This document shows positions 1 to 31,110 of a stretch of DNA of 36,454 nt, piece after piece (within the stretch, counting starts at the first letter, position 1; every line of letters starts with the position of its first letter). Location: NCBI GenBank assembly GCA_947628105.1, contig CANQYN010000002.1, positions 1 through 36,454 on the forward strand, in the 5' to 3' direction. Made by a program: the position numbers and the translations under genes. This stretch comes from an uncultured Bacilli bacterium (GTDB taxonomy: Bacteria; Bacillota_I; Bacilli_A; RF39; UBA660). The notes beneath the pieces are model-generated. The model saw nothing but the letters and a program-made list of their open reading frames with translations, was not told the DNA's origin and made no database searches.

Positions 1-12
1 GATATTAAATGT

Positions 13-1116
13 TTAGCTTCCTTTTCTTGTTGTCACACTTTTTCCGGTAAACGTGTGAGTATGTTCAGTTCCCGTTAATGTATGCGTATGGGATGTTCCA
101 GTAAACGTATGACTATGAGCTGTTCCCGTAAACGTATGCGTATGAGCTGCTCCCGTAAAGGTATGACTATGAGTAGTTCCAGTAAATGCATGCGTATGAC
201 TAGCCATTTCTTTTTCTTCTAATTTGTGAATTTTTTCTCCTCCTGTTTTTCCCATTCCATTAAATTCAGTTTGAGAACTATCGTATCCAACTAATACTTT
301 CCCTTTCAAATCAGGAAGATTAAAAGAAGTAGATCCATCCCCAGAACCATATACGCTTTTGATTTTATCATACAATTTTTTATATGTCTTTCTCATCACT
401 TCTTGTCCGTTTGCTTCTAAATATCCTTTAGGTATATCTGAACCTCCAAAGGCAACAATTCCACCTATTGGAGTCTTATCAATTTGTACGATACTAGCTG
501 TACAACTTCGATATCCTAATTCTTCATTACTTTTAAAACGCATAATAAAATATCCATTTTTTTGTAATTGAAAATTTGCTACTCCAAGTCTTTCATCATC
601 ACTATATTTTTTCCAACTTTTTCCATTATCTAGAGAATAACTATATTCATAATCTCCTCCTACAGGAAATTGAACTTCGACTTCTTTTTCAATTGCATAA
701 CCATTTGTTAAAATTTCACAATCGATATCTCCTAAGTTGGCATTAACAACTCCTTTTTCAATACATTCATATCTATTTACCCAGCCAAAATCCAATTTTT
801 CTTCTCCGTTGACTCTTGCACGTACTACATTTTCATCTGCTTTGTCTGGTAAATCTTCATACTGTAAATATTCACCTTGTTCTAATCGATCTGTAGAAAT
901 ACAATAAGTGTTTCCTTCTTCCAATGGATAAGCATTTTTATTATCATCCAAATATCGATCCGTTGCTTGATATAACAATCGTTGTTTAGAACCTTCCGTT
1001 TTTCCGGTTACTTGATTCATCATTTCTAATATTCTAGGAAACGCAATCAAACTAACCAATCCTAATAGAACAATTACAGCAAGTAATTCCACTAAAGTAA
1101 ATCCTCTTTTCTTCAT
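13..1116 (-). CDS. Type IV pilin-like protein (prepilin N-terminal cleavage/methylation motif) fused to a phage tail-collar-like domain and a C-terminal HxH nonapeptide repeat array
   Basis: The N-terminus MKKRG|FTLVELLAVIVLLGLV has the class III signal features G-1, F+1 and E+5 followed by a hydrophobic helix. Residues ~215-305 (IGGIVAFGG..GYLEANGQ..FNLPDLKGKVLVG..GGEKIHKLEEKEMASHTH) fit the tail-collar / MdpB-type pattern as I remember it. The tail carries six HxHxFTG units. An SD AGGAAG and a consensus promoter lie upstream; the stop is TAA at 13-15. Confidence 0.85.
   Translation of the reverse strand: MKKRGFTLVELLAVIVLLGLVSLIAFPRILEMMNQVTGKTEGSKQRLLYQATDRYLDDNKNAYPLEEGNTYCISTDRLEQGEYLQYEDLPDKADENVVRARVNGEEKLDFGWVNRYECIEKGVVNANLGDIDCEILTNGYAIEKEVEVQFPVGGDYEYSYSLDNGKSWKKYSDDERLGVANFQLQKNGYFIMRFKSNEELGYRSCTASIVQIDKTPIGGIVAFGGSDIPKGYLEANGQEVMRKTYKKLYDKIKSVYGSGDGSTSFNLPDLKGKVLVGYDSSQTEFNGMGKTGGEKIHKLEEKEMASHTHAFTGTTHSHTFTGAAHTHTFTGTAHSHTFTGTSHTHTLTGTEHTHTFTGKSVTTRKGS
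43..201 (-). repeat. In-frame 27-bp tandem repeat, about 6 copies, encoding (S/T/A/E)H(T/S)H(A/T)(F/L)TG(T/A/K)
   Basis: The plus strand shows period-27 units such as cgtaaacgtatgcgtatgagctgctcc. Translated units are SHTHAFTGT, THSHTFTGA, AHTHTFTGT, AHSHTFTGT, SHTHTLTGT and EHTHTFTG. Confidence 0.9.
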
Positions 1117-1145
1117 TTTTCAACTTCCTATCCTATTCTGTATCA

Positions 1146-1175
1146 ATTATACCTCTCATTTCATTGTTTTGTCAA
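1146..1175 (-). promoter_or_regulatory. Sigma-A type promoter for the pilin-like gene
   Basis: The minus strand reads TTGACA (1175-1170), an 18-nt spacer, then TATAAT (1151-1146). It lies about 30 nt upstream of the ATG, directly after the upstream terminator. Confidence 0.6.
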
Positions 1176-1203
1176 TCAAAAAAGCTATCTTTCTGATAGC
1201 TTT
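1176..1203 (-). terminator. Rho-independent terminator ending the Mur/AsnB operon
   Basis: The minus strand reads AAAGCTATC-agaaa-GATAGCTTT followed by a T-run. The hairpin overlaps the stop codon of the last asnB-like gene. Confidence 0.7.
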
Positions 1204-3031
1204 ATGATTCCATTTTCTCAAAAAATTCATGATACCAAACAAGAAATGTATAAACCGTCCAAATTTTTTTATAGTTATCTTTTTTATTATGACGATGTTC
1301 TTCTAACAGTTTTAATAATTTTTCTGTTTTAAATAATTTTTGACAAATATCACTTTGAAAAGCATCTTTTATCTCTAAATAAATATCTTCTTCCCTCATC
1401 CATTCACGAAGAGGAACAGGAAATCCTAATTTTTTCTTATTATAAGATTCATTAGGAATATCTCTTTTTGCAGCTTGACGAAGTGCTACTTTCGTATTTT
1501 CTTTCGTCACTTTTGCACTATCAGGTAACGTTCTAGCCACCTTAAAAACTTCAATATCAGTAAAAGGTACCCTTCCTTCTATCGAATGGGCCATCGTCAT
1601 TTTATCTGCTTTTTGAAAAATATCATTAATTAGCCAAAATTGAATATCGATTGCCTGTCTTTTAATAATATTACTTTGTCCTTTTTGAAGTTCACAAACA
1701 GATCGAATAATTTCTTTATTGCTTTTTGATTTATCTTCTATCTTTAAAATTTTTCTAGCTTCTTTTTCGGGATAAACAGCATTGACTCCAATATAACCAT
1801 CCTCTATTTTTTGCCCTCGCCTTACTAAAAAGTTAATTCCTCTTCGTTGTGGTAAAAAACTACAAAGAGTGGCAATAAAATGTCGAATCGGGTAAGGAAT
1901 TTTATTATAGAAGCTAACATCTACCTCTGCTCGATAAATATTATATCCGCCAAAAAATTCATCGGCTCCTTCTCCAGATAATACTACTTTCACATCACGA
2001 CTTGCCAATTCAGCGACAAAATAAAGTGCGACAGCAGCGGGATCTGCTAGTGGTTCATCCAAATGGTACATAATTTTTGGAATGACATCAAAATATTCTT
2101 CTTTTGATATTTTTTTACTAGTATTATTAATATGAAGTTGTTTCGCTAAATCTTGTGCATAACGAATTTCATCATACTTAGGAATATCATATCCCACCGT
2201 ATATGTTTTATCAGGTTTTGTCAAAGCAACTAAATAAGAAGAATCAATTCCACTACTTAAAAAGGAACCAACTTCTACATCACTTATCATATGATGAGAA
2301 GCAGAATCTTTCATCACTTTACTAATCTCATCGACAATTTCATCAAATGATCTTTCTTTTTGATCAAAAGTCAATTCAAAATAAGATTGAATATCTAAAT
2401 GACCTTCTTTAAATCGAAAATAATGACCTGGTTTTAATTTATAAACATTTTTAAAAAAAGTTTCTTCTGTCGGTGTATAATTAAATCGCAAATAAGCTGG
2501 TAAAATATCAGTATTTAGTTCTTTTTTAAATTCTGGATTTTTTAAAAAACTTTTAATTTCTGATCCATACATAAAAAATTCCTTATCATGATAATAATAA
2601 AGCGGTTTAATTCCAAAATAATCTCTCGCTCCAAATAATTCTTTCTTTTTTGTATCCCATATAACAAAAGCAAACATCCCACGAAGTTTTTTTAAGATAT
2701 CTACTCCATATTCTTCATAGCCATGTAAAATTACTTCTGTATCGGTCGTCGTTGTAAATTGATGTCCTTTTTTCTGTAATTCTTTTTTTATTTCTCGATA
2801 ATTATAAATTTCTCCATTAAAGGTAATTAACTTATCTTTTTTTTCATTAAAAATTGGTTGTTTCCCTGTATTTAAATCAATAATCGAAAGTCTTCGGTGT
2901 CCTAAAGCAACGATATCATCGATATAATAACCTTCATCATCTGGTCCTCGATGAACAATTTGAAAAAGCATATCTTTTAATATTTTTTCTTTGTTCTTTT
3001 TCTTACTAATATATCCTGTAATTCCGCACAT
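1202..3031 (-). CDS. asnB: Asparagine synthase (glutamine-hydrolysing) family amidotransferase, paralog 1
   Basis: N-terminal MCGI with the Ntn nucleophile Cys2. HRRLSIIDL..GKQP and SGG-type (SSGIDSS) PP-loop motifs are present. SD is AAGGAGG. Confidence 0.9.
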   Translation of the reverse strand: MCGITGYISKKKNKEKILKDMLFQIVHRGPDDEGYYIDDIVALGHRRLSIIDLNTGKQPIFNEKKDKLITFNGEIYNYREIKKELQKKGHQFTTTTDTEVILHGYEEYGVDILKKLRGMFAFVIWDTKKKELFGARDYFGIKPLYYYHDKEFFMYGSEIKSFLKNPEFKKELNTDILPAYLRFNYTPTEETFFKNVYKLKPGHYFRFKEGHLDIQSYFELTFDQKERSFDEIVDEISKVMKDSASHHMISDVEVGSFLSSGIDSSYLVALTKPDKTYTVGYDIPKYDEIRYAQDLAKQLHINNTSKKISKEEYFDVIPKIMYHLDEPLADPAAVALYFVAELASRDVKVVLSGEGADEFFGGYNIYRAEVDVSFYNKIPYPIRHFIATLCSFLPQRRGINFLVRRGQKIEDGYIGVNAVYPEKEARKILKIEDKSKSNKEIIRSVCELQKGQSNIIKRQAIDIQFWLINDIFQKADKMTMAHSIEGRVPFTDIEVFKVARTLPDSAKVTKENTKVALRQAAKRDIPNESYNKKKLGFPVPLREWMREEDIYLEIKDAFQSDICQKLFKTEKLLKLLEEHRHNKKDNYKKIWTVYTFLVWYHEFFEKMES

Positions 3032-3047
3032 AATATCCTCCTTCTTT

Positions 3048-4898
3048 TTATAACTCGATAAAATATTTTTGATACCAAGTTAGAAAGACAAATATATTAT
3101 AAATTTTTCTTCCATTATTTTCTATTTTTCGATAATGTTTTTCTAATAAATCGTTGATTTTTTCTTTTTCAAAGAAATTAGAAACAAAATCTTTTTGAAA
3201 CATTTCCTTTACTTGTTGATAATATTTTTTTTCATATAACCATTTAGAAAAAGGTACTGGAAAACCTAACTTTCTTCTTTTTGCCCATTCTTCTGGTATT
3301 GTTTCATTGGCAATTTCTCGAAATATATATTTCGTCTGTTTCTTTTTTACTAAATATTTTGTAGGAATTTGGGAAGCAATATCCCATAATTTTTTATCTA
3401 ACAATGGAGTTCTTAATTCCAATGAATGAGCCATAGCCATTTTATCGGCTTTTAAAAGCATATCTTGAGGTAACCAAAAATGAAAATCAATATACAGTTT
3501 TTTAGTAATATCATCTTGATTTTTAACTTTATCATAATATGGTTTAATTACATCGCGAATCATCATATTATCTTTTAATCGTGGAGCCAATATATCATTT
3601 GCTTCTTTTTCATTCATAATATAAGCATGTCCAAAATATCGTTCATAAAATGGTTGACTATACTTTATAATGGTATTTTTTCCAGGAAAGTGAGGAAGAG
3701 GAGTTGCGATCGTCGCAAAACTTCTTTTCACAAATTGTGGTAATTTAATATAAAGTTTTACTACATTAGGCTCATAATATTCATTATAACCGGCAAACAT
3801 TTCATCAGATCCTTCTCCAGATAATACTACTTTTACTTGTTTTGATGCTAAAGAAGATAAAAAATAAAGAGGAACGGTTGACAAATTAGCATGAGGTTCA
3901 TCTGTATGATATTGAATCATAGGGAGAGCTTCAAAATATTCATCCGTAGTAATAAATTTTCTTTTATTTTTAATTCCTAACATTTCCGATAAATCTTTTG
4001 CATATTCTGTCTCATCAAAGGTTAATCCCCCTTTTTTGTCCATATGAAAACCGACAGAAAACGTCTTATCTGGTTTCGCGACACTAACGACATAAGAAGA
4101 ATCAACACCTCCTGATAAATAAGCACCCACTTCTACATCAGAAGTAATTTGATGATATTTTACAGAATCTTCTAGAACTTCTTTTAATTCTTGTTTATAA
4201 CTATCATAATCTCTATCTTTTTTATTATATAAGATATCAAAATATTGTTTTACTTTTAATTTCCCATCTTTATATTGAAAATAATGACCTGGTTTTAACT
4301 TATAAACATTTTTAAAAAAAGTTTCTTCAAAAATTGAATATTGAAAAATCAAAAACATTTTTAATGGTTTATCATTGATTTCTTTTTTAAAATGAGGGTG
4401 TGGTAAAAAACTCTTAATTTCAGAGCCAAACATAAATTCATCATCACAATAGTAATAATAAAATGGTTTCATTCCAAAATGATCTCGAGCCCCCACTAAT
4501 TCTTTCGTTTTTTTATCATAAATAACAAAGGCAAACATCCCTCTTAATTGCGAAAAAAGCTTTTCATGATATTCTTCATAACCATGTAAAATTACTTCTG
4601 TATCAGTTGTTGTGGTAAATTGATGACCTTTTTCTATTAAATCTTTTTTTAGTTCTTGATAGTTATAAATTTCTCCATTAAAAATAATCATTTTGCTTTT
4701 ATCTTCGTTATAGATTGGTTGTTTTCCTGTATTTAAATCAATAATGGAAAGACGTCGATGTCCAAGAGCAATATCATCATCGATATAATAACCTTCATCA
4801 TCGGGTCCCCGATGAATAATTTTATCTGCCATATTTTTAATGATTTTTTTCTTTTTCTCTTTTTTTATCGTATCGATAAATCCGACAATCCCACACAT
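3048..4898 (-). CDS. asnB: Asparagine synthase (glutamine-hydrolysing) family amidotransferase, paralog 2
   Basis: MCGIVGF start, HRRLSIIDL..GKQP motif and SGGVDSS PP-loop. SD is AGGAGG. Tandem to paralog 1. Confidence 0.9.
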   Translation of the reverse strand: MCGIVGFIDTIKKEKKKKIIKNMADKIIHRGPDDEGYYIDDDIALGHRRLSIIDLNTGKQPIYNEDKSKMIIFNGEIYNYQELKKDLIEKGHQFTTTTDTEVILHGYEEYHEKLFSQLRGMFAFVIYDKKTKELVGARDHFGMKPFYYYYCDDEFMFGSEIKSFLPHPHFKKEINDKPLKMFLIFQYSIFEETFFKNVYKLKPGHYFQYKDGKLKVKQYFDILYNKKDRDYDSYKQELKEVLEDSVKYHQITSDVEVGAYLSGGVDSSYVVSVAKPDKTFSVGFHMDKKGGLTFDETEYAKDLSEMLGIKNKRKFITTDEYFEALPMIQYHTDEPHANLSTVPLYFLSSLASKQVKVVLSGEGSDEMFAGYNEYYEPNVVKLYIKLPQFVKRSFATIATPLPHFPGKNTIIKYSQPFYERYFGHAYIMNEKEANDILAPRLKDNMMIRDVIKPYYDKVKNQDDITKKLYIDFHFWLPQDMLLKADKMAMAHSLELRTPLLDKKLWDIASQIPTKYLVKKKQTKYIFREIANETIPEEWAKRRKLGFPVPFSKWLYEKKYYQQVKEMFQKDFVSNFFEKEKINDLLEKHYRKIENNGRKIYNIFVFLTWYQKYFIEL

Positions 4899-13552: not shown

Positions 13553-15091
13553 TCATTCGTTTTTATTTACATTTTTATGATTTTTCCACTTTAATGAATA
13601 AATGAGTAAAGGGATAGCACAAAACATTTGAGAACAAACAAACCTTATCTCTCCTCCTGTAATTAATAACATAACGATTAATGTATTACTAATGACAAGA
13701 AGAAATGGCAAATAAGCTTCTAAATTCAATTTCTGCTTAGCAATCATCAACATAAATGAAAAAACGATAATGAAAAGCCCTGTTCCAACCCCAAAAAATA
13801 AATATTTCAATAATGAAGATGAAACTATATTGGTATATCTATCATAATATTCATTAAGTTGTTTTAAAATACTTGAAGACGGAACTTCTGTAACATCAAA
13901 TTTAGAAAAGGAAACACTATCTTCTATTTTCCAAATAGGGCTTGTCACATTTAAGTAAGATCGAAGATACTTGAAAGGATATTTAAAACCATATTTTATA
14001 TAAAGTGTTATAATATCATTAAAATTTTCATTTGCCCAAGTCATATAAAGTTGTTTCCCTTTTGTTTTTAAAGAATTAAAATTAGTAGGACTATAATACT
14101 CTTCCCATGTTTTTTTATCTGCAAATTTATCTAATAACTCTCTTTCTTCTTTGGTTAATGTGGCGTTATTATGATAAATATAAGCGATTTGATTCATCGG
14201 AATTCCTAACATTTCTGTTTTCCCGCCATCAGGAGAAACACCAAGAGAAGAATAAATTGGACCATACAGTAAAAACCGAAATATTACTAATAAAAATCCC
14301 AACATAAGATAAAACTTTCGATATTTTTTATATAACAAAGATAGTACAATAAACATTATTATAATGCTGATAATTCCATTATGTCGGAGCAGCATCACTC
14401 CTAAGCTCATTAGAATAAAAACTATTTTATGACTTACTTTTTCTATCCATTGACCATGAGTAAAAACTAGTTCTATCAATATTAAAGTTCCTAAGAAAAT
14501 CATCCAAGAAAATGGTGTATCTTTACATAGAAACATGCACATTTTCATCACGGCAGGATTGAACAGAAATATGAAAAGAGTAATTAAAGTTCCTTTTTTA
14601 CTTAAGAAATATTTTCGTAAAATATAACAAAAATATAGTAAAATAACTCCTATTAAAATTAATTGAAAAATAGAACAAGACACATAACTATCATATATTA
14701 AAGATGGCAATTTAAAGAATAACAAAGTATGAATAACAGGATGCCAATTACTATAAGTATTTGTATGGGCTTGTCGCCATTGATTTGCGGTATCTACTGG
14801 TTTTAATACTGCCGGATATAAGGCGAAAAAGATAAAAATTAAAATAATACATATAAAAGCCCCATATAATAATAATTCTTTAGAATGAAAATCTTCTTTT
14901 TTAGCTTGTATCTCTCGCGAAATAAACGAAGGAAATAAAAATGATAGAATGATTACTGTTATACCAAATAATACTAATATACTAAACCAAGAAATACTTT
15001 CTCCTACCGTCCAACAAATCGATAAAGAAAAATAAAATGCTAAAATAATAATTAATATTTTTGATAAAAAATTATTTTTTACTTTTTTCAT
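13553..15091 (-). CDS. Polytopic membrane protein, tandem paralog 1 of 3 (possible GT-C-like extracytoplasmic glycosyltransferase)
   Basis: About 11-13 hydrophobic helices. A conserved first-loop D..QWRQ....Y(S/T)NWHP motif and a large soluble loop (GGK.EM.G.P.NQIAYIYH..) are present. Its ATG overlaps the stop of paralog 2 (ATGA). Confidence 0.85.
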   Translation of the reverse strand: MKKVKNNFLSKILIIILAFYFSLSICWTVGESISWFSILVLFGITVIILSFLFPSFISREIQAKKEDFHSKELLLYGAFICIILIFIFFALYPAVLKPVDTANQWRQAHTNTYSNWHPVIHTLLFFKLPSLIYDSYVSCSIFQLILIGVILLYFCYILRKYFLSKKGTLITLFIFLFNPAVMKMCMFLCKDTPFSWMIFLGTLILIELVFTHGQWIEKVSHKIVFILMSLGVMLLRHNGIISIIIMFIVLSLLYKKYRKFYLMLGFLLVIFRFLLYGPIYSSLGVSPDGGKTEMLGIPMNQIAYIYHNNATLTKEERELLDKFADKKTWEEYYSPTNFNSLKTKGKQLYMTWANENFNDIITLYIKYGFKYPFKYLRSYLNVTSPIWKIEDSVSFSKFDVTEVPSSSILKQLNEYYDRYTNIVSSSLLKYLFFGVGTGLFIIVFSFMLMIAKQKLNLEAYLPFLLVISNTLIVMLLITGGEIRFVCSQMFCAIPLLIYSLKWKNHKNVNKNE

Positions 15092-16635
15092 TTTATTTCC
15101 TCATTTCTAATTATTATTTTTTTTAGATATAATGCATAAATAAGCAATGGAATTACACATAACATTTGCGAATATACAAATCTTATTTCATATTTTGCCG
15201 TTGTTAACATCATAATAACAGCTGTATTACTTAATACGAGTATATATGGTAAATAGGCATGAAGATGTTTTTTTGACTTTATTATTACAATTGTAAAAGA
15301 TACTATAATACCAAATAAACTTGTTCCTATCCCCATAAAAATATATTTGAATGGTGATGCTTCTACAACAGAAGCATAATCGTCATAAACATTTTTTATA
15401 TAAGAAAATACTTTCGAATGATTTTCTGGTTGAGGCAATGAATCAAAATGAATGGAATCATTTCTAATAGTCCATATAGAACTGGTAACATTTAAATAAG
15501 CACGCAAATATTTATCTGGATATTTCATAGCGTATTTGATATAAAGTTTTATAAGATCATTAAAATTTTCATTTACCCAAGGAATAAATACAGGGCGAAT
15601 GTCATCATCAAATTTAAGAGTATTGAAATTTCCAGGTCTATATTTTTCTTCCCATTTTTTCTTTGGTGCTAATTTATCAAATAAATCCAGTTCTTCAGGT
15701 GTCATTTTTACATTTTGATGGTAAATATAGGCGATTTGATTTAAAGGCACTCCTATCATTTCTGATTTACCTCCATCGGAAGCAATTCCTAATTGATGAT
15801 AAATAGGACCATATAGTAAAAATCGAAATAAGAATAATAAGATTCCCACTATAAGATAAAATTTCCTATCTTTTTTATAAATTAAAATCAAGAAAACTAA
15901 TAAACAAAAGATGCTGATAATTCCATTATGCCGAAATAACATAATTCCTAAGCTCATTAATACAAAAAGTATTTTATGACTTATTTTCTCAATCCATTTC
16001 CCTTTTGTCAGTACTATTTCTATCGAAATTAATGTTCCTAAAAATAAAAGCCATGAAAATGCAATATCCTTTATTAAAAACATCGACATTTTACTAAAAG
16101 ATGGATTCAATACGATGAGCAACAAAACGAGAATGGTTCCTTTTTTACTTAAAAAATATTTTCTTAAAAAGATACAAAAATATAACAAGATAGTGCCAAT
16201 AAAAAGCATTTGAAAAATTGTACAAGATATATAATGATTATAAATTAATGTAGGTAATTTCAGAAATAAAATTGTTTGAACTACAGGGTGCCAATTACTA
16301 TAATTTCCAGTTTGTACTTGTCTCCATTGAGAAGTAATATCAGCATTGATAACTGCGGGATACCACACCAAGAAAGATAATACAAAAACGATAAGAAGAA
16401 TAAATCCATATAAAATGAGTTCCTTACGCATATCTTCCTCTGGTGACTTTTTTAAAGTTATACTTGTTATGGTTGAAAAATATCTTTTCAAAAATAAATA
16501 AGAAATAATAAATATGATTCCTACGCTAAACCAAGAAATACTCTCATTTAAATCCCATCCAATAGCAATAGACAAATAAAATGCTAATAGTATCACTAAT
16601 ATATTATTTAATAAATTTTGTTTCGCTATTTTCAT
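15088..16635 (-). CDS. Polytopic membrane protein, tandem paralog 2 of 3
   Basis: Same architecture and motifs as paralog 1 (SNWHPV, LRKYFLSKKGT, FRFLLYGPIY, EIRFVYSQ). ATGA overlap with paralog 3. Confidence 0.85.
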   Translation of the reverse strand: MKIAKQNLLNNILVILLAFYLSIAIGWDLNESISWFSVGIIFIISYLFLKRYFSTITSITLKKSPEEDMRKELILYGFILLIVFVLSFLVWYPAVINADITSQWRQVQTGNYSNWHPVVQTILFLKLPTLIYNHYISCTIFQMLFIGTILLYFCIFLRKYFLSKKGTILVLLLIVLNPSFSKMSMFLIKDIAFSWLLFLGTLISIEIVLTKGKWIEKISHKILFVLMSLGIMLFRHNGIISIFCLLVFLILIYKKDRKFYLIVGILLFLFRFLLYGPIYHQLGIASDGGKSEMIGVPLNQIAYIYHQNVKMTPEELDLFDKLAPKKKWEEKYRPGNFNTLKFDDDIRPVFIPWVNENFNDLIKLYIKYAMKYPDKYLRAYLNVTSSIWTIRNDSIHFDSLPQPENHSKVFSYIKNVYDDYASVVEASPFKYIFMGIGTSLFGIIVSFTIVIIKSKKHLHAYLPYILVLSNTAVIMMLTTAKYEIRFVYSQMLCVIPLLIYALYLKKIIIRNEEIK

Positions 16636-18155
16636 ATTTCATGACCAGCTTTTCTACCTTTTAAAGAAAGAGCATAAATCAATAATGGAACAGCACATAG
16701 TATTTGAGAATAAACAAATCGTATCTCTTCACCTGTTATTAATAACATAATAATTAACGTGTTACTAATAACTAGTATAAATGGTAAATAATATTCTAAT
16801 TGAAATCTTTTCCTATAAATCACTATTACAATAGATAAAACAATAAGAAATAACCCCATTCCCACTCCGAAAAATAAATATTTTAATGGAGACGTAGAAA
16901 TAATATCATAATATCTTTCATAACACCCTCTCGCATGAATTAAAATGAAAGAATGATTTTTTTGTAATTCATCCGATGCAAAATTATCTAAATGATCTTG
17001 AATTTTCCAAATAGGACTTGTCACGTTCATATAAGAACGTATATATTTATCAGGATATTTAATAGCATATTTTATATAAAATTTTATAATTTCTTTAAAA
17101 TTTGTATCCACCCATGTTCCATAAATACCTTTACTGTTTGATTTCAAAAAATTAAAACTCGCTGGGCGATAATATTGTTCCCACTTTTCTTTGGGAGCAA
17201 GCTTGTCCAATAGTTTATGTTCTTCTTTTGTCATTTTAACATTTTGATGATAAATATAGGCGATTTGATTCATCGGAACTCCCATCATTTCTGATTTTCC
17301 TCCATCAGGGGTAATTCCTAATTGACTATAAACGGGTCCATATAATAAAAATCGAAATAAAACAAATAGAATGCCACAAGTCATATAAAATTTACGTTTA
17401 TCTTTATATAAAACAATTAAAGTTAAAAACATCAATACGACACTGAAAAGTCCATTATGACGAAACATCATAATTCCTAAGCTTACTAAAATAAAAATTA
17501 TTTTATGACTTGTTTTTTCTATCCATTTTCCTTTTGTAAAAACAATTTCTATTAAAAATAAAGTTCCTACAAACAATATCCATGAAAATGGGACATCTTT
17601 ATAACAATACATCGACATTTTAATAAAAGTAGGATTTAACATAATTGTCAATAAAGCAAGGATTGTTCCTTTTTTACTCAGAAAATATTTTCTTAAAAAG
17701 ATACAAAAATATAATAAAATACATCCAATAAAAATTAATTGAAAAACAGATAATGATACATAACTGTCATATATCATAGTCGGTAAAGTGACAAAAATTA
17801 AAGTCTCAATGAAAGGATGCCAATTGGTATAAGTTCCACTATGTACTTGACGCAATTGACTTTGGGTATCAGAACTTACAACGGCAGGAAATAAGGCAAG
17901 AAATGCGAAAAGAAAAATTGTTATAATGATACCACCATATAAAATCAATTCCTTTTTTTCATATTTTTCTTTATCTTTTTTCAAAACAAAATTACTGAGA
18001 TTAGGAAATATCGTCTTCAATATCATAAAAGAAATAAAAAATATCATTACCACACTAAACCAAGAGATGCTTTCATTTAGATTCCAACAAATGGAAATAG
18101 AAAAATAAATAGATAATAACATTTCCAAAATAAATAACAAACTATTTTTTTTCAT
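16632..18155 (-). CDS. Polytopic membrane protein, tandem paralog 3 of 3
   Basis: Same motifs as the other two. The start is placed at the ATG at 18155 (MKKNSLLF...), which aligns with the N-termini of the paralogs. The ORF-track extension to 18233 would overlap the 3' end of ugd. Confidence 0.85.
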   Translation of the reverse strand: MKKNSLLFILEMLLSIYFSISICWNLNESISWFSVVMIFFISFMILKTIFPNLSNFVLKKDKEKYEKKELILYGGIIITIFLFAFLALFPAVVSSDTQSQLRQVHSGTYTNWHPFIETLIFVTLPTMIYDSYVSLSVFQLIFIGCILLYFCIFLRKYFLSKKGTILALLTIMLNPTFIKMSMYCYKDVPFSWILFVGTLFLIEIVFTKGKWIEKTSHKIIFILVSLGIMMFRHNGLFSVVLMFLTLIVLYKDKRKFYMTCGILFVLFRFLLYGPVYSQLGITPDGGKSEMMGVPMNQIAYIYHQNVKMTKEEHKLLDKLAPKEKWEQYYRPASFNFLKSNSKGIYGTWVDTNFKEIIKFYIKYAIKYPDKYIRSYMNVTSPIWKIQDHLDNFASDELQKNHSFILIHARGCYERYYDIISTSPLKYLFFGVGMGLFLIVLSIVIVIYRKRFQLEYYLPFILVISNTLIIMLLITGEEIRFVYSQILCAVPLLIYALSLKGRKAGHEI

Positions 18156-18171
18156 CTTTTCACATCCATTC

Positions 18172-19338
18172 TCAATCTCTTGTATAAATATCTCTCGTAT
18201 AAATTTTGGAAATGCTATCGTTAATATTTTCATCTATTCTATTAGCTAAAATAATATCAGATTTTTCTTTAAAATCTTGTAGATCATCTATTACTTTACA
18301 ATTAGCAAATGTCCCTTCTTTTACAATTGGTTCATAGATAATAATATCGATATCTTTTCGTTTCAATAACGCTATAATATCTTGAATAGCGCTGGCTCTA
18401 AAATTATCAGAATTATTTTTCATTGTTAAACGATATATTCCTACTATTTTGGGAGATTTTTTTTCTATCATATCAACAATATGTCTTTTTCGTGTATCAT
18501 TTGATTTTATAATAGCTTCTATAATATTATTCGGGACATCTTTATAATTAGCAAGCAATTGTTTTGTATCCTTAGGTAGGCAATATCCACCATACCCAAA
18601 AGAAGGATTATTATAAAAATCACCAATTCTAGGATCAAGGCATACCCCTTCAATAATATCTTTTGTATTTAGACCTTTCAGTTCCGCGTAAGTATCTAAC
18701 TCATTAAAATAAGATACACGTAATGCTAAATAAGTGTTTGCGAACAATTTAACTGCTTCTGCTTCAGTTGATTCCATTAAAAGAATTGGAATATCTTTTT
18801 TAATAGCTGCTTCTTTTAATAAAGAAGCAAATTTTAAAGCTCTATCACTTTTCTCACCTACGATAATTCGAGATGGATATAAATTATCATATAAAGCTTT
18901 TCCTTCTCTTAAAAATTCTGGTGAAAACATAATATTAGTCATTTGATATTTTTGTTTCATTTGCTTAATAAAACCAACTGGTACTGTCGACTTGACAACG
19001 ATTGTCCCCATAGGATTAATACTTTTTACTTTCATGATAATATCTTCTACACTAGAAGTATCAAAATAATTTAATTCTTCATCATAATTAGTAGGTGTAC
19101 TAATGATAATAAATTCAGCTTTTTCAAATGCTTCTTTAGCATCTAACGTAGCTTTTAAATCAAGCTTTTTTGTTCTGAAATATTCTTCTATTTCCCTATC
19201 TCTTATAGGCGACTTTTTTTGATTTATCATATCTACTTTTTCAGATAATACATCGAAAGCTATTACTGTATTCCTTTGAGCAAGTAAAACAGCAATAGAA
19301 AGTCCTACATATCCTGTTCCTGCAACTGCTATTTTCAT
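18172..19338 (-). CDS. ugd: UDP-glucose 6-dehydrogenase
   Basis: [14 protein letters not shown] Rossmann start, a catalytic-region [10 protein letters not shown] motif and a length of 388 aa. Confidence 0.9.
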
Positions 19339-29195: not shown

Positions 29196-29873
29196 CTACT
29201 TTGCTCCATGACCTCTTAAAACTGCAATCACTGTTTTGAAAATAATTTTAATATCCAACCATATACTCATATGATCAACATAATATAATTCTAAAGCTAT
29301 TCTATCTTCATAGTTCCTACAGCTTCTTCCATTACAAGCCCACCATCCAGTTAAACCCGGTAATATACTTAATAATTTTTTCTGGTTTTTACCATATTTT
29401 TTTAATTCTTCTTTTACGATAGGTCTAGGTCCTACTAAAGACATATCTCCTTTTAAAACATTGATTAATTGTGGTAATTCATCCAAAGAACAAATTCGTA
29501 AAATTTTTCCAACTTTCGTAATTCTCGGATCATTATCTAATTTAAAATTAGCTTTCCACTCTTTTCTTCTTTTCGGATTTTTTAATAATTTTTTTAATTC
29601 TTTATCGGCACCATCATACATGCTTCTAAATTTATATAACCATATCGTTTTCCCATCTTTTCCAATACGCTTATGTTTATAAAATACTGGTCCTTTTGAA
29701 TTCAGTTTTATCATTAAAGCAATCAATAAAAAAATCGGTGACAAAATTATTAAAGCCGCTAACGAAAAAAATGCATCAAAAAAACGTTTAACGAATAAAT
29801 AATTTTTATTTGTTTCGCTAAAGTTTTGCTTTTTTAATACTTTATCCTTCAATGCTTTTCTTTGATTGCCCAC
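29196..29873 (-). CDS. Initiating undecaprenyl-phosphate sugar-phosphate transferase (small monotopic phosphoglycosyl transferase)
   Basis: KRFFD..SL..LIILSPIFLLIAL..GPVFYKHKRIG and DELPQLINVLKGDMSLVGPRP motifs. GTG start at 29873 preceded by GGAGGG with a 6-nt spacer. Confidence 0.9.
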   Translation of the reverse strand: MGNQRKALKDKVLKKQNFSETNKNYLFVKRFFDAFFSLAALIILSPIFLLIALMIKLNSKGPVFYKHKRIGKDGKTIWLYKFRSMYDGADKELKKLLKNPKRRKEWKANFKLDNDPRITKVGKILRICSLDELPQLINVLKGDMSLVGPRPIVKEELKKYGKNQKKLLSILPGLTGWWACNGRSCRNYEDRIALELYYVDHMSIWLDIKIIFKTVIAVLRGHGAK

Positions 29874-29917
29874 AACATACCCTCCATACTACTATATTAG
29901 TCTTTTAAAAATATCAT

Positions 29918-29932
29918 AGAACAACTAGTTCT
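29918..29932. repeat. Left recombination core site AGAAC-AACTA-GTTCT
   Basis: Perfect 5-bp inverted arms flank an asymmetric 5-nt spacer. It is the exact reverse complement of the site at 31130-31144. It lies 44 nt upstream of the operon's GTG start. Confidence 0.7.
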
Positions 29933-29954
29933 CGGATAGCTGTAATACATACAA

Positions 29955-30072: not shown

Positions 30073-31008
30073 ATGTTAATATTTAAGAAAAAATATCTTT
30101 TTTTCGATTTGATTAATTTATGGCTAGATACGAAAAAAAACATTAAAATTCAATCGTATCAAAAGTATGAAAATTTAGCCAATTTATTTATTAAAAATAG
30201 TATAGGTAATATTGATATTAATTTACTAACAAAAGAAGATATCCTCTGTTTTTTTAAAAATCTACAAGATAAAAAAGTATCTATATCAACTCAGAAAATA
30301 TTACTTTATATTATAAAAGCTACTCTACAAATGGCATATCAAAAGAAAAAATGCAATTATATTGATCTAAGCGATATTAAAATTAAATCACCAGTCAGAA
30401 ATACATATATTTTATCAAAAGAAGACCAATTGAAGCTAGAACATGTTTTAAAAGAAGATATTAACATTCGAAAAACATGCTTGTTACTTTGTTTATATAC
30501 TGGTCTTCGTATTGGTGAAGTATGTGGTTTAAAATGGGAGGATATTAATTTCAATACAAAATCACTAGAAGTAAAAAGAACGATTGAGAGAATAAAAAAT
30601 AATGAAAAAAATTCTCATTTAAAAACTATTTTAATTGAAAGTACACCTAAAAGTGATACATCTAATCGTATTATTCCTATTCCTAATTTTTTAATTCAAA
30701 TGTTACAAAAATTAAAAACAGAGGATAAATATTTTTTATTATCCAATAAAGAAACATTATATGATCCAAGACTTTTTAATTATTTTTATAAAAATATTTT
30801 AAAAAAATCTAATATTACCTATACTAATTTTCATACTTTACGCCATACTTTTGCAACTCGTTCAATCGAATCAAAAATGGATATAAAAACGTTAAGTGAA
30901 ATTTTAGGACATTCTAATGTCGATATAACGTTGCGTTTATATGTACATCCTTCGTATGAATTAAAGAAAAAATCGATTGAAAATTTAGTAAACTTTATGA
31001 CTAATTAG
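30073..31008 (+). CDS. Tyrosine site-specific recombinase (phage-integrase / Xer-like family)
   Basis: The catalytic signature is present: TGLRIGEV (Arg I), HTLRHTFAT (His-x-x-Arg), LGHSNV and RLYVH (Tyr). SD is GGAGGTGA. Confidence 0.9.
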   Translation: MLIFKKKYLFFDLINLWLDTKKNIKIQSYQKYENLANLFIKNSIGNIDINLLTKEDILCFFKNLQDKKVSISTQKILLYIIKATLQMAYQKKKCNYIDLSDIKIKSPVRNTYILSKEDQLKLEHVLKEDINIRKTCLLLCLYTGLRIGEVCGLKWEDINFNTKSLEVKRTIERIKNNEKNSHLKTILIESTPKSDTSNRIIPIPNFLIQMLQKLKTEDKYFLLSNKETLYDPRLFNYFYKNILKKSNITYTNFHTLRHTFATRSIESKMDIKTLSEILGHSNVDITLRLYVHPSYELKKKSIENLVNFMTN

Positions 31009-31073
31009 CAAAAAAAGAAAAATTGTTATATATGTTTTACATAAATGATATAGCTTTTAACTAATAATATCAT

Positions 31074-31088
31074 AAAACTAGTTGTTCT
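31074..31088. repeat. Inner right core site AAAAC-TAGTT-GTTCT (one arm mismatch)
   Basis: A direct repeat of the outer right site, 56 nt upstream of it. It overlaps the -35 of the right-hand promoter and is preceded by ATATCATA, as the left site is. Confidence 0.55.
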
Positions 31089-31110
31089 AAGAATGTTTTC
31101 ATGATATAAT
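31082..31110 (+). promoter_or_regulatory. Outward-facing extended -10 promoter candidate at the right end of the cassette
   Basis: TTGTTC (31082-31087), a 17-nt spacer including TG, then TATAAT (31105-31110). In the present orientation it reads into the mraY terminator. Confidence 0.5.

Follow-up and report, generated by a model that had tools for sequence, protein, structure and literature searches.

A type IV pilin module fused to a phage-type collar and needle in an uncultured Bacilli bacterium, with Sec-exported partner chains in related loci

We analysed a stretch of 36,454 nucleotides (nt) from an uncultured Bacilli bacterium (GenBank assembly GCA_947628105.1, contig CANQYN010000002.1), and refer to this whole stretch as the window. 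At its left end lies a minus-strand open reading frame (ORF), here called chain A, in which an N-terminal type IV pilin module is followed by a beta-sandwich spacer, a phage tail Collar domain and a series of HxH units (Table 1). In related loci the corresponding gene is followed by one or two shorter genes for Sec-exported Collar paralogues, and the tips of the chains from one locus generally match each other in HxH number and length. We give about an even chance to the reading that chain A is a modular type IV pilin which acts in a cell-surface fibre together with Sec-exported partners and is carried by a type IV filament.

The protein starts with MKKRG|FTLVELLAVIVLLGLVSLIAF, in which the leader and processing site form the motif MKKRG|FTLVE. 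The Pfam family N_methyl (PF07963) matches residues 2-26 with 29.1 bits (Pfam cut-off 21.2), and the NCBIfam model IV_pilin_GFxxxE (TIGR02532, prepilin-type cleavage/methylation) scores 28.3 bits (cut-off 16.3). These two profiles bear out the prepilin leader and methylation site that had been read from the letters alone in a first-pass annotation of the window. The class III motif is kept in 18 of 18 family members with an intact N-terminus. Positions F6, T7, L8 and E10-V16 are invariant in these 18 sequences and at least 90% conserved across 19 family sequences, the sole exception being the N-terminally truncated P0016. Two cysteines, Cys72 and Cys118, are invariant across the family alignment.

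The similarity to pilins extends well past the leader. A phmmer search with residues 1-215 against 1.84 billion representative proteins gave 2,773 matches, many of which are complete stand-alone pilins of 113-135 amino acids (aa) that align over residues 1 to about 120. They share the motif EGNxYC, and those of 121 and 127 aa also retain the C-terminal cysteine. Because residues 1-120 align end to end with stand-alone pilins, we take this part of chain A to be a whole pilin and not just a motif. An AlphaFold2 (AF2) model of residues 1-215, with a mean predicted local distance difference test score (pLDDT) of 79, gives the pilin module a 51-residue alpha1 helix (residues 8-58) and a small sheet of three strands at pLDDT 70-88. 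In addition, a profile of the family matches several solved pilins in the PDB through the N-terminal helix.

The middle domain (residues ~125-212) is modelled as all beta with pLDDT 80-90. Foldseek finds for it only weak FN3/Ig-like matches in the PDB (E of at least 0.005), and the comparison with the Pfam family BNR gives E=0.2. Among the matches to residues 1-215 are giant proteins that carry this domain as a repeat, in up to 39 copies. A 533-aa protein from a human gut metagenome (OPBM01000774.1, locus L097, 9519-11120) has the same pilin module and middle domain, with different, Ig-like C-terminal modules in place of Collar, so that the pilin-spacer carrier is reused with other effector modules. 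A metagenome scan with a carrier-specific alignment gave no more than three loci: a known one, and two in which a distant relative has other C-terminal modules.

In the C-terminal half, Collar (PF07484) matches residues 218-274 with 59.6 bits and E=3e-16 (Pfam cut-off 24), and Gp10_C (PF21939) reaches 25.4 bits, just below its cut-off of 27. PHROGs tail-fibre and tail-collar families match residues ~205-360, the best with E=2.2e-30. Against the PDB, the family profile finds a 'Long tail fiber' chain (8kec_A, 4.9e-19) and the tip of T4 gp37 (2xgf, 1.1e-7). The tail-collar domain proposed at first sight thus has firm profile support. The HxH units that follow correspond to a 27-nt tandem repeat of 5.9 copies at 42-199; in gp37, HxH motifs coordinate iron along the three-chain needle that is set into the collar (PMC6957217), and by analogy the units of chain A may bind metal as well. 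We regard both halves of the protein as cases of real homology, far beyond chance, rather than as look-alikes. A family variant of 294 aa, P0123, has a Collar region that leads straight into the ..MIKYQ end of the C-terminal cap, with no HxH needle, and the needle would accordingly seem dispensable in some members.

The end of the window copy differs from that of its relatives. The ORF finishes with ...HTHTFTGKSVTTRKGS-TAA, and its stop lies 12 nt from the end of the contig. It lacks the C-terminal cap, of the form G..xHNNLxPYxxLxYIIKYQ, with which 18 of 18 relatives end, as do all partners whose genes do not run off a contig. In a MAFFT alignment Gly366 is aligned with the invariant Gly that precedes HNNL of the relatives by 4-5 residues, and the window stop falls where the relatives carry 3-5 variable residues ahead of HNNL. 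In T4 gp37, the collar domain D10 consists of residues 811-881 and the returning residues 1010-1026, and the needle is an insertion into D10 with seven His-coordinated iron atoms (PMC6957217). Because these returning residues complete D10 of gp37, we interpret the family cap as the segment that closes the collar. As written, the 367-aa product would then be without a defining part of the collar fold. Since the ORF has no cap and stops 12 nt from the contig end, it is probably truncated there. The six HxH units named in the first-pass annotation are all present, at residues 307-358, but the stop behind them is probably not the native end.

As an explanation of the window copy we slightly favour a pseudogene or an artefact of assembly, whether through a nonsense change, a rearrangement (at an insertion sequence or repeat, for example) or misassembly of the contig tip. 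The sequence as assembled would in that case give no functional product, and any functional model of the family would remain compatible with it. The absence of a segment that all relatives and uncut partners possess argues for this explanation, together with the Gp10_C match, which covers profile positions 34-120 of 139 and so ends early, the position of the stop at the variable residues, the codons T-F-N-I that follow it, and the fact that the last 17 residues of gp37 complete the collar fold. On the other hand, these four codons alone follow the stop, so that their resemblance to the cap is weak. The family tips are also highly variable and short ones exist (62-63 aa in the second triad of locus L087), and the promoter, the ribosome-binding site and the remaining ORF are intact.

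Three other accounts of this end were tried and rejected. An alternative genetic code does not explain the early TAA, as all three stops are used in the 29 ORFs of the window (TAA 12, TAG 9, TGA 8). Frameshift rescue of the C-terminus fails because the other two frames past the HxH units carry stops and show no similarity. A shufflon-like inversion at the gene end was discarded since no inverted repeats tie positions 1-1116 to the rest of the window.

The family context was established by a search of 5.8 billion proteins. This search gave about 19 clusters with the N_methyl+Collar architecture, of 415-489 aa and 29-52% identity, none of them named. It also gave hundreds of shorter Collar+Gp10_C proteins with no pilin N-terminus, some of which are named 'microcystin-dependent protein'. 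We examined gene contexts at nine loci, representing eight family members. At 9 of 9 loci chain A is followed, 8-14 nt on, by one or two shorter Collar(+Gp10_C) genes, whose products we call chains B and C. These partners have Sec-type signal peptides and no pilin N-termini, and their Collar domain begins almost at once. Triads occur at L005, at L091 and at L087, where two stand in tandem on one NCBI contig, while L001, L088 and L092 are dyads. The flanks vary by locus and hold housekeeping, sporulation or cell-wall genes (CotE, SpoIIGA/sigE, ffh, teichoic-acid transferases, FemAB, enolase). In one lineage, a gene for a large serine recombinase (Resolvase+Recombinase+Zn_ribbon_recom) stands immediately upstream of the pilin-Collar gene (L001 495-2078 and L002 4935-6518).

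The carriers are low-GC gut Gram-positive bacteria, and the family is small and unnamed. A scan of GTDB genomes with the family alignment was dominated by the generic pilin motif GFTLVELLA. Its best 80 loci (L007-L086), mostly from uncultured gut Bacilli, 'Tenericutes' and Erysipelotrichaceae metagenome-assembled genomes (MAGs), included no full-length family member. About 50 of these 80 loci hold a large ORF (300-1586 aa) with a prepilin-type N-terminus, scattered among housekeeping genes, and these lineages seem to use pilin-type N-termini very widely.

The cassette changes how the window gene is to be viewed. It had been annotated as an independent unit, and the rest of any pilus locus had been placed beyond coordinate 1. 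The first part is doubtful, since in relatives the gene opens a cassette of two or three genes. As to the second, genes are indeed expected beyond coordinate 1 from the order in relatives, but what relatives carry there is one or two Sec-exported Collar paralogues and not pilB, pilC or pilD.

Within all loci but one the tips of the chains match each other. HxH counts are equal within loci (4/4, 8/8/8, 3/3/3, 1/1/1, 5/5, 6/6, 3/3/3), and the lengths of the tips after the collar are near-identical (171/171/171, 100/100/101, 63/62/62, 132/129, 134/139). Mean tip identity is 59.5% within loci and 29.2% between loci (between-locus maximum 53.7%), compared with 56.7% and 49.2% for the Collar domain. 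The p-value of the tip comparison, 3e-9, is indicative only, because the sequence pairs are not independent, and the number of independent loci behind the matched-tip pattern is small. In the second triad of L087 (12861-15282), all three tips, each with one HxH and a Gly-rich segment, are 90-93% identical, the Collar domains are 59-73% identical, and B and C share 90.5% DNA identity. This pattern suggests that the tips alone were recently homogenised.

Matched HxH number and tip length form the pattern expected of co-assembly, because chains in one needle must keep their HxH layers in register. Three further observations favour co-assembly. Chains B and C lack a shaft before the collar. In an uncultured Bacilli MAG (CASPVX010000017.1, L056, 258-3162), two tandem Collar/HxH genes are followed by a gene for a 383-aa pilin-like protein with the same YSLDxGxxW beta-sandwich at its C-terminus and no Collar, as if the fusion had been split into neighbouring genes for carrier and fibre. 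Finally, three consecutive gp37-like Collar proteins of the virophage DSLV2 form a needle-like 1:1:1 heterotrimer experimentally (PMC12724248). Taken together, we infer that chains A, B and C may form a hetero-oligomeric fibre with a single pilin stem. The first-pass annotation had contrasted phage fibres, which are trimeric, with pilins, which assemble as monomers; this contrast is probably resolved by hetero-oligomerisation with the partners, the pilin stem being on one chain only.

We compared the family with known systems. A modular type IV pilin is defined by an N-terminal IPR012902 motif and one or more further domains that are not peculiar to type IV filaments (Raynaud et al. 2021, PMC8179133), and chain A, with N_methyl and Collar both above the Pfam cut-offs in one polypeptide, belongs to this class. 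The census in that work comprises 1,219 proteins in 264 architectures; among its examples are two proteins of Streptococcus sanguinis, PilB, which carries a vWA module, and PilC, which carries a lectin module, and such pilins present their effector modules at pilus tips (PMC8179133). As in these proteins, a pilin module is linked to a non-pilus domain in a monoderm host, and the fused module is a proposed adhesin presented by a filament. The window protein differs in that its module is a collar/HxH needle that normally needs three chains and is set apart by an FN3-like spacer. The family gene also lies outside a pilus operon, with Sec-exported paralogues of the module downstream in relatives.

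The idea that the combination had not been described before does not hold. Together with the R64 PilV adhesins, a PilV-tail-collar fusion is among the closest known systems. This fusion, UCP91044.1, lies among pilus genes, is diversified by programmed inversion and has been interpreted as the reuse of a phage receptor-binding module for recognition by pili (Milman et al. 2023, PMC9881135). Collar (IPR011083) also occurs in the census, in two singleton architectures only, one with FN3 and three Collar copies and one with a PilV shufflon domain (PMC8179133). Chain A shares with UCP91044.1 a pilin-type N-terminus joined to a Collar domain. Unlike chain A, the fusion has a PilV domain (pfam04917), pilus-gene neighbours and inversion: a Pfam search of the window protein gave no PilV match (PF04917) at E<=1, no inverted repeats in the window involve positions 1-1116, and the only recombinase in the window lies 29 kb away. 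The literature we searched contains neither this monoderm pilin-Collar family nor its FN3-like spacer nor, above all, the conserved downstream Sec-exported partners with matched tips.

The tip of T4 gp37 (PDB 2XGF), to which the C-terminal domains of gp12 and gp10 are related, has the same order of Collar and HxH, and the relatives of the window protein have its returning C-terminal segment. However, gp37 is a virion homotrimer that needs chaperones, whereas the family has a cellular context and a pilin N-terminus, and the window ORF has no returning segment. DSLV2 has three consecutive paralogous Collar genes of similar length, and the family has analogous triads with matched tips. The DSLV2 proteins are viral and attached to the capsid, and no chain has a pilin or signal peptide, in contrast to the family with its pilin and spacer on one chain and its two-gene loci. 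Cellular Collar proteins of the COG4675/'microcystin-dependent protein' type (MdpB-like) are, like the partner chains and the weaker search matches, short Collar+Gp10_C proteins, but they have neither pilin module nor spacer. For these MdpB-like proteins we found no described function.

Based on these observations, we propose the following model. A class III signal peptide would put chain A into the membrane, and a prepilin peptidase encoded elsewhere would cleave it after Gly5. No gene for such a peptidase (peptidase A24) is found in the window. Outside the membrane, the collar-needle of chain A would assemble with its Sec-exported paralogues B (and C) into a three-chain needle with metal ions at the HxH histidines and a single pilin stem. 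This stem would let a type IV filament, either a pilus or a Com-type pseudopilus, bear the fibre, most likely at or near its tip, where it could bind a glycan or protein on a surface. Pilus display of chain A is plausible. The stricter proposal, that one pilin-stemmed chain and one or two Sec-exported paralogues mount a trimeric phage-type needle on a type IV filament in Gram-positive gut bacteria, is tentative, and we judge it less likely than not.

Several results weigh against filament display and co-assembly, and we list them together. Genes for PilB/ComGA, PilC/ComGB and PilD/ComC are all missing from the window. Motif scans detect no PilB/GspE-type ATPase within 10 kb of any family locus, and no pilus-assembly families appear in the precomputed Pfam rows of the nine family loci. 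No pilus operon came to light around the closest stand-alone pilins either: they are orphans among housekeeping genes, or lie on contigs too short to tell. When both AF2 models were compared with the PDB by Foldseek, neither pilin nor fibre structures were recovered. In the AF2 model of the full-length monomer the collar-needle (residues 213-358) has pLDDT <50, a value that is uninformative either way because it is expected for an interdigitated multi-chain fold. For the heterotrimer the grounds are gene order and matched tips, and gene conversion among tandem homotrimer-forming paralogues would give the same pattern of tips. One locus (L092/L094) breaks the matching rule, with 5 HxH and a 126-aa tip in chain A and 2 HxH and 51 aa in its partner. 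Three lineages have a single partner gene, which leaves the stoichiometry ambiguous. Finally, the window copy itself, having no segment to close its collar, is possibly non-functional.

The absence of nearby pilus machinery favours the main rival, a membrane-anchored fibre that is not borne by a filament. Here the pilin N-terminus would serve as export signal and anchor, cleaved or not, and the spacer and three-chain needle would extend across the cell wall, acting as a fixed adhesin or as a device that binds wall glycopolymers. Besides the nine family loci with no such machinery nearby, the wider sample fits this explanation. The PilB/GspE-type ATPase motif was found in 3 of 98 scanned loci, with no family locus among them, and an ATPase ORF lies within 10 kb in only 2-3 of the 80 GTDB loci with similar pilin N-termini, 78 of the 80 having none; the large pilin-like ORFs at some 50 of these loci point the same way. 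Cell-wall genes, moreover, adjoin several loci (the glycopolymer operon of the window, teichoic-acid Glyphos_transf genes, FemAB). Yet what is conserved is the whole pilin module, homologous to stand-alone pilins, and not just the hydrophobic helix. Glu+5, present in 18 of 18 members with an intact N-terminus, matters in type IV pilins for filament assembly and not for anchoring. From general pilin biology, the conservation of Glu+5 and of the full module therefore argues for incorporation into a filament, and pilin genes away from the machinery are common in bacteria that make type IV filaments. We consider the anchored fibre rather unlikely.

A second rival accepts display by a pilus and denies the mixed needle. 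Chain A would form a homotrimer on its own, as a trimeric tip minor pilin like CofB, and B and C would be separate secreted homotrimeric, lectin-like fibres that share their receptor specificity by gene conversion. CofB, from the type IVb pili of enterotoxigenic Escherichia coli (ETEC), is a modular minor pilin that forms trimers and is predicted to sit at the tip of the pilus, as cited in PMC8179133. So far as it is described there, it resembles chain A as a large modular minor pilin with C-terminal domains that trimerise and a location at the tip, and differs as a homotrimer with three pilin stems, unrelated C-terminal folds and a gene inside a pilus operon. Phage collar/gp37 tips are normally homotrimers as well, the near-identical tips and B/C genes of the second L087 triad fit recent gene conversion, and three lineages have dyads instead of triads. 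Against it, HxH number and tip length stay equal within loci even where tip identity is 46-61%, as expected of chains in register. Chains B and C have almost no sequence before the collar and would be unattached as homotrimers, and in DSLV2 the products of three neighbouring genes were shown by experiment to form a 1:1:1 heterotrimer. We rate the homotrimer as somewhat less probable than the anchored fibre.

A remnant of a prophage or tailocin tail fibre, its hydrophobic N-terminus gained by chance, is very improbable: the C-terminal half does match tail-fibre proteins in 463 phage GenBank records and many PHROGs tail families, but these records match in the Collar part only and none covers >40% of the protein, the pilin-plus-spacer carrier has no match in an IMG/VR scan, the pilin module is clearly conserved, and there are no phage structural, lysis or packaging genes in the window or the nine family loci, whose flanks are housekeeping, sporulation and cell-wall genes.

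If the filament-borne hetero-oligomeric fibre is correct, the cassette would illustrate how an assembly machinery working subunit by subunit can present a trimeric binding module of viral type. The fibre would represent a previously undescribed way to reconcile trimeric adhesins with pilus assembly and a cellular domestication of a gp37-type tip, and it would point to a new adhesin class among the little-studied low-GC gut Firmicutes. Modular pilins are believed to underlie the many functions acquired by simple type IV filaments, and phage fibre tips are among the best-evolved binders of bacterial and host surface glycans. The matched-tip rule, equal HxH number and tip length, is a simple signature of co-assembly that may extend to many unexplained tandem bacterial Collar genes ('microcystin-dependent protein'). 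The window copy calls for caution, as the gene is cut short or damaged where the contig stops and the expected partner genes lie outside the assembled sequence.

Table 1 Positions of chain A, its domains and the signals upstream of it in the window.
Feature	Position	Strand	Detail
Whole ORF, chain A (pilin-FN3-like-Collar-HxH)	13..1116	(-)	367 aa, ATG start, TAA stop at 13-15
Pilin module, residues 1-120	757..1116	(-)	Leader, alpha1, small beta-sheet, Cys72/Cys118
Leader MKKRG	1102..1116	(-)	Gly-1, then Phe+1 and Glu+5
Middle beta-sandwich, spacer/adaptor	481..744	(-)	Residues ~125-212, Asp-box-like YSLDxGKxW motif
Phage tail Collar domain	295..465	(-)	Residues 218-274; Pfam, PHROGs, phage records, PDB profile match
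Linker from Collar to first His	199..294	(-)	Follows Collar domain
Six HxHxFTGxx units, gp37-type candidate metal-binding needle segment	43..198	(-)	Residues 307-358, 9-residue period
Aberrant end	1..42	(-)	KSVTTRKGS, TAA at 13-15, then 12 nt reading T-F-N-I in frame
Ribosome-binding site AGGAAG	1124..1129	(-)	7 nt 5' of ATG, read from sequence
Sigma-70-type promoter match TTGACA-18 nt-TATAAT	1146..1175	(-)	12/12, consensus match only
Terminator-like hairpin	1181..1203	(-)	9 pairs (3 G-C) and T run, -14.2 kcal/mol, z=-3.9

The signals upstream of chain A are largely as first annotated. The near-consensus promoter noted there agrees with the consensus at every position (Table 1). A terminator had also been noted and called strong; a terminator-like hairpin is present, of a kind for which the chance expectation is 0.3 sites, with 3 G-C among its 9 stem pairs. 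This hairpin overlaps the stop of an upstream asparagine-synthase-like (asnB-like) gene, and as a terminator-like element it would end that gene and set the glycopolymer operon apart from the pilin-fibre gene.

The rest of the window, which has a GC content of 27%, is one long minus-strand locus for a cell-wall glycopolymer or capsule. It encodes two AsnB paralogues, an ATP-grasp protein, alanine racemase, Mur ligases and a LytR-CpsA-Psr protein, as well as three DUF6020 proteins, UDP-glucose dehydrogenase and a Wzy-like protein, together with GT1 and Bac_transf glycosyltransferases and an MraY-like transferase. The two asparagine-synthase (AsnB-like) paralogues stand in tandem at 1202-4898. 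The three DUF6020 membrane-protein paralogues, likewise in tandem (13553-18233), share blocks of 70-78% nt identity.

The sole plus-strand gene of the window, at 30073-31008, encodes a tyrosine recombinase (Phage_integrase). It lies directly upstream of the Bac_transf gene (29196-29873), the first gene of the minus-strand glycopolymer operon, and is flanked by a 32-nt inverted repeat (29907-29938 and 31068-31099, 78% complementary). This repeat-bracketed recombinase could be an invertible phase-variation switch for the capsule or wall polysaccharide locus.

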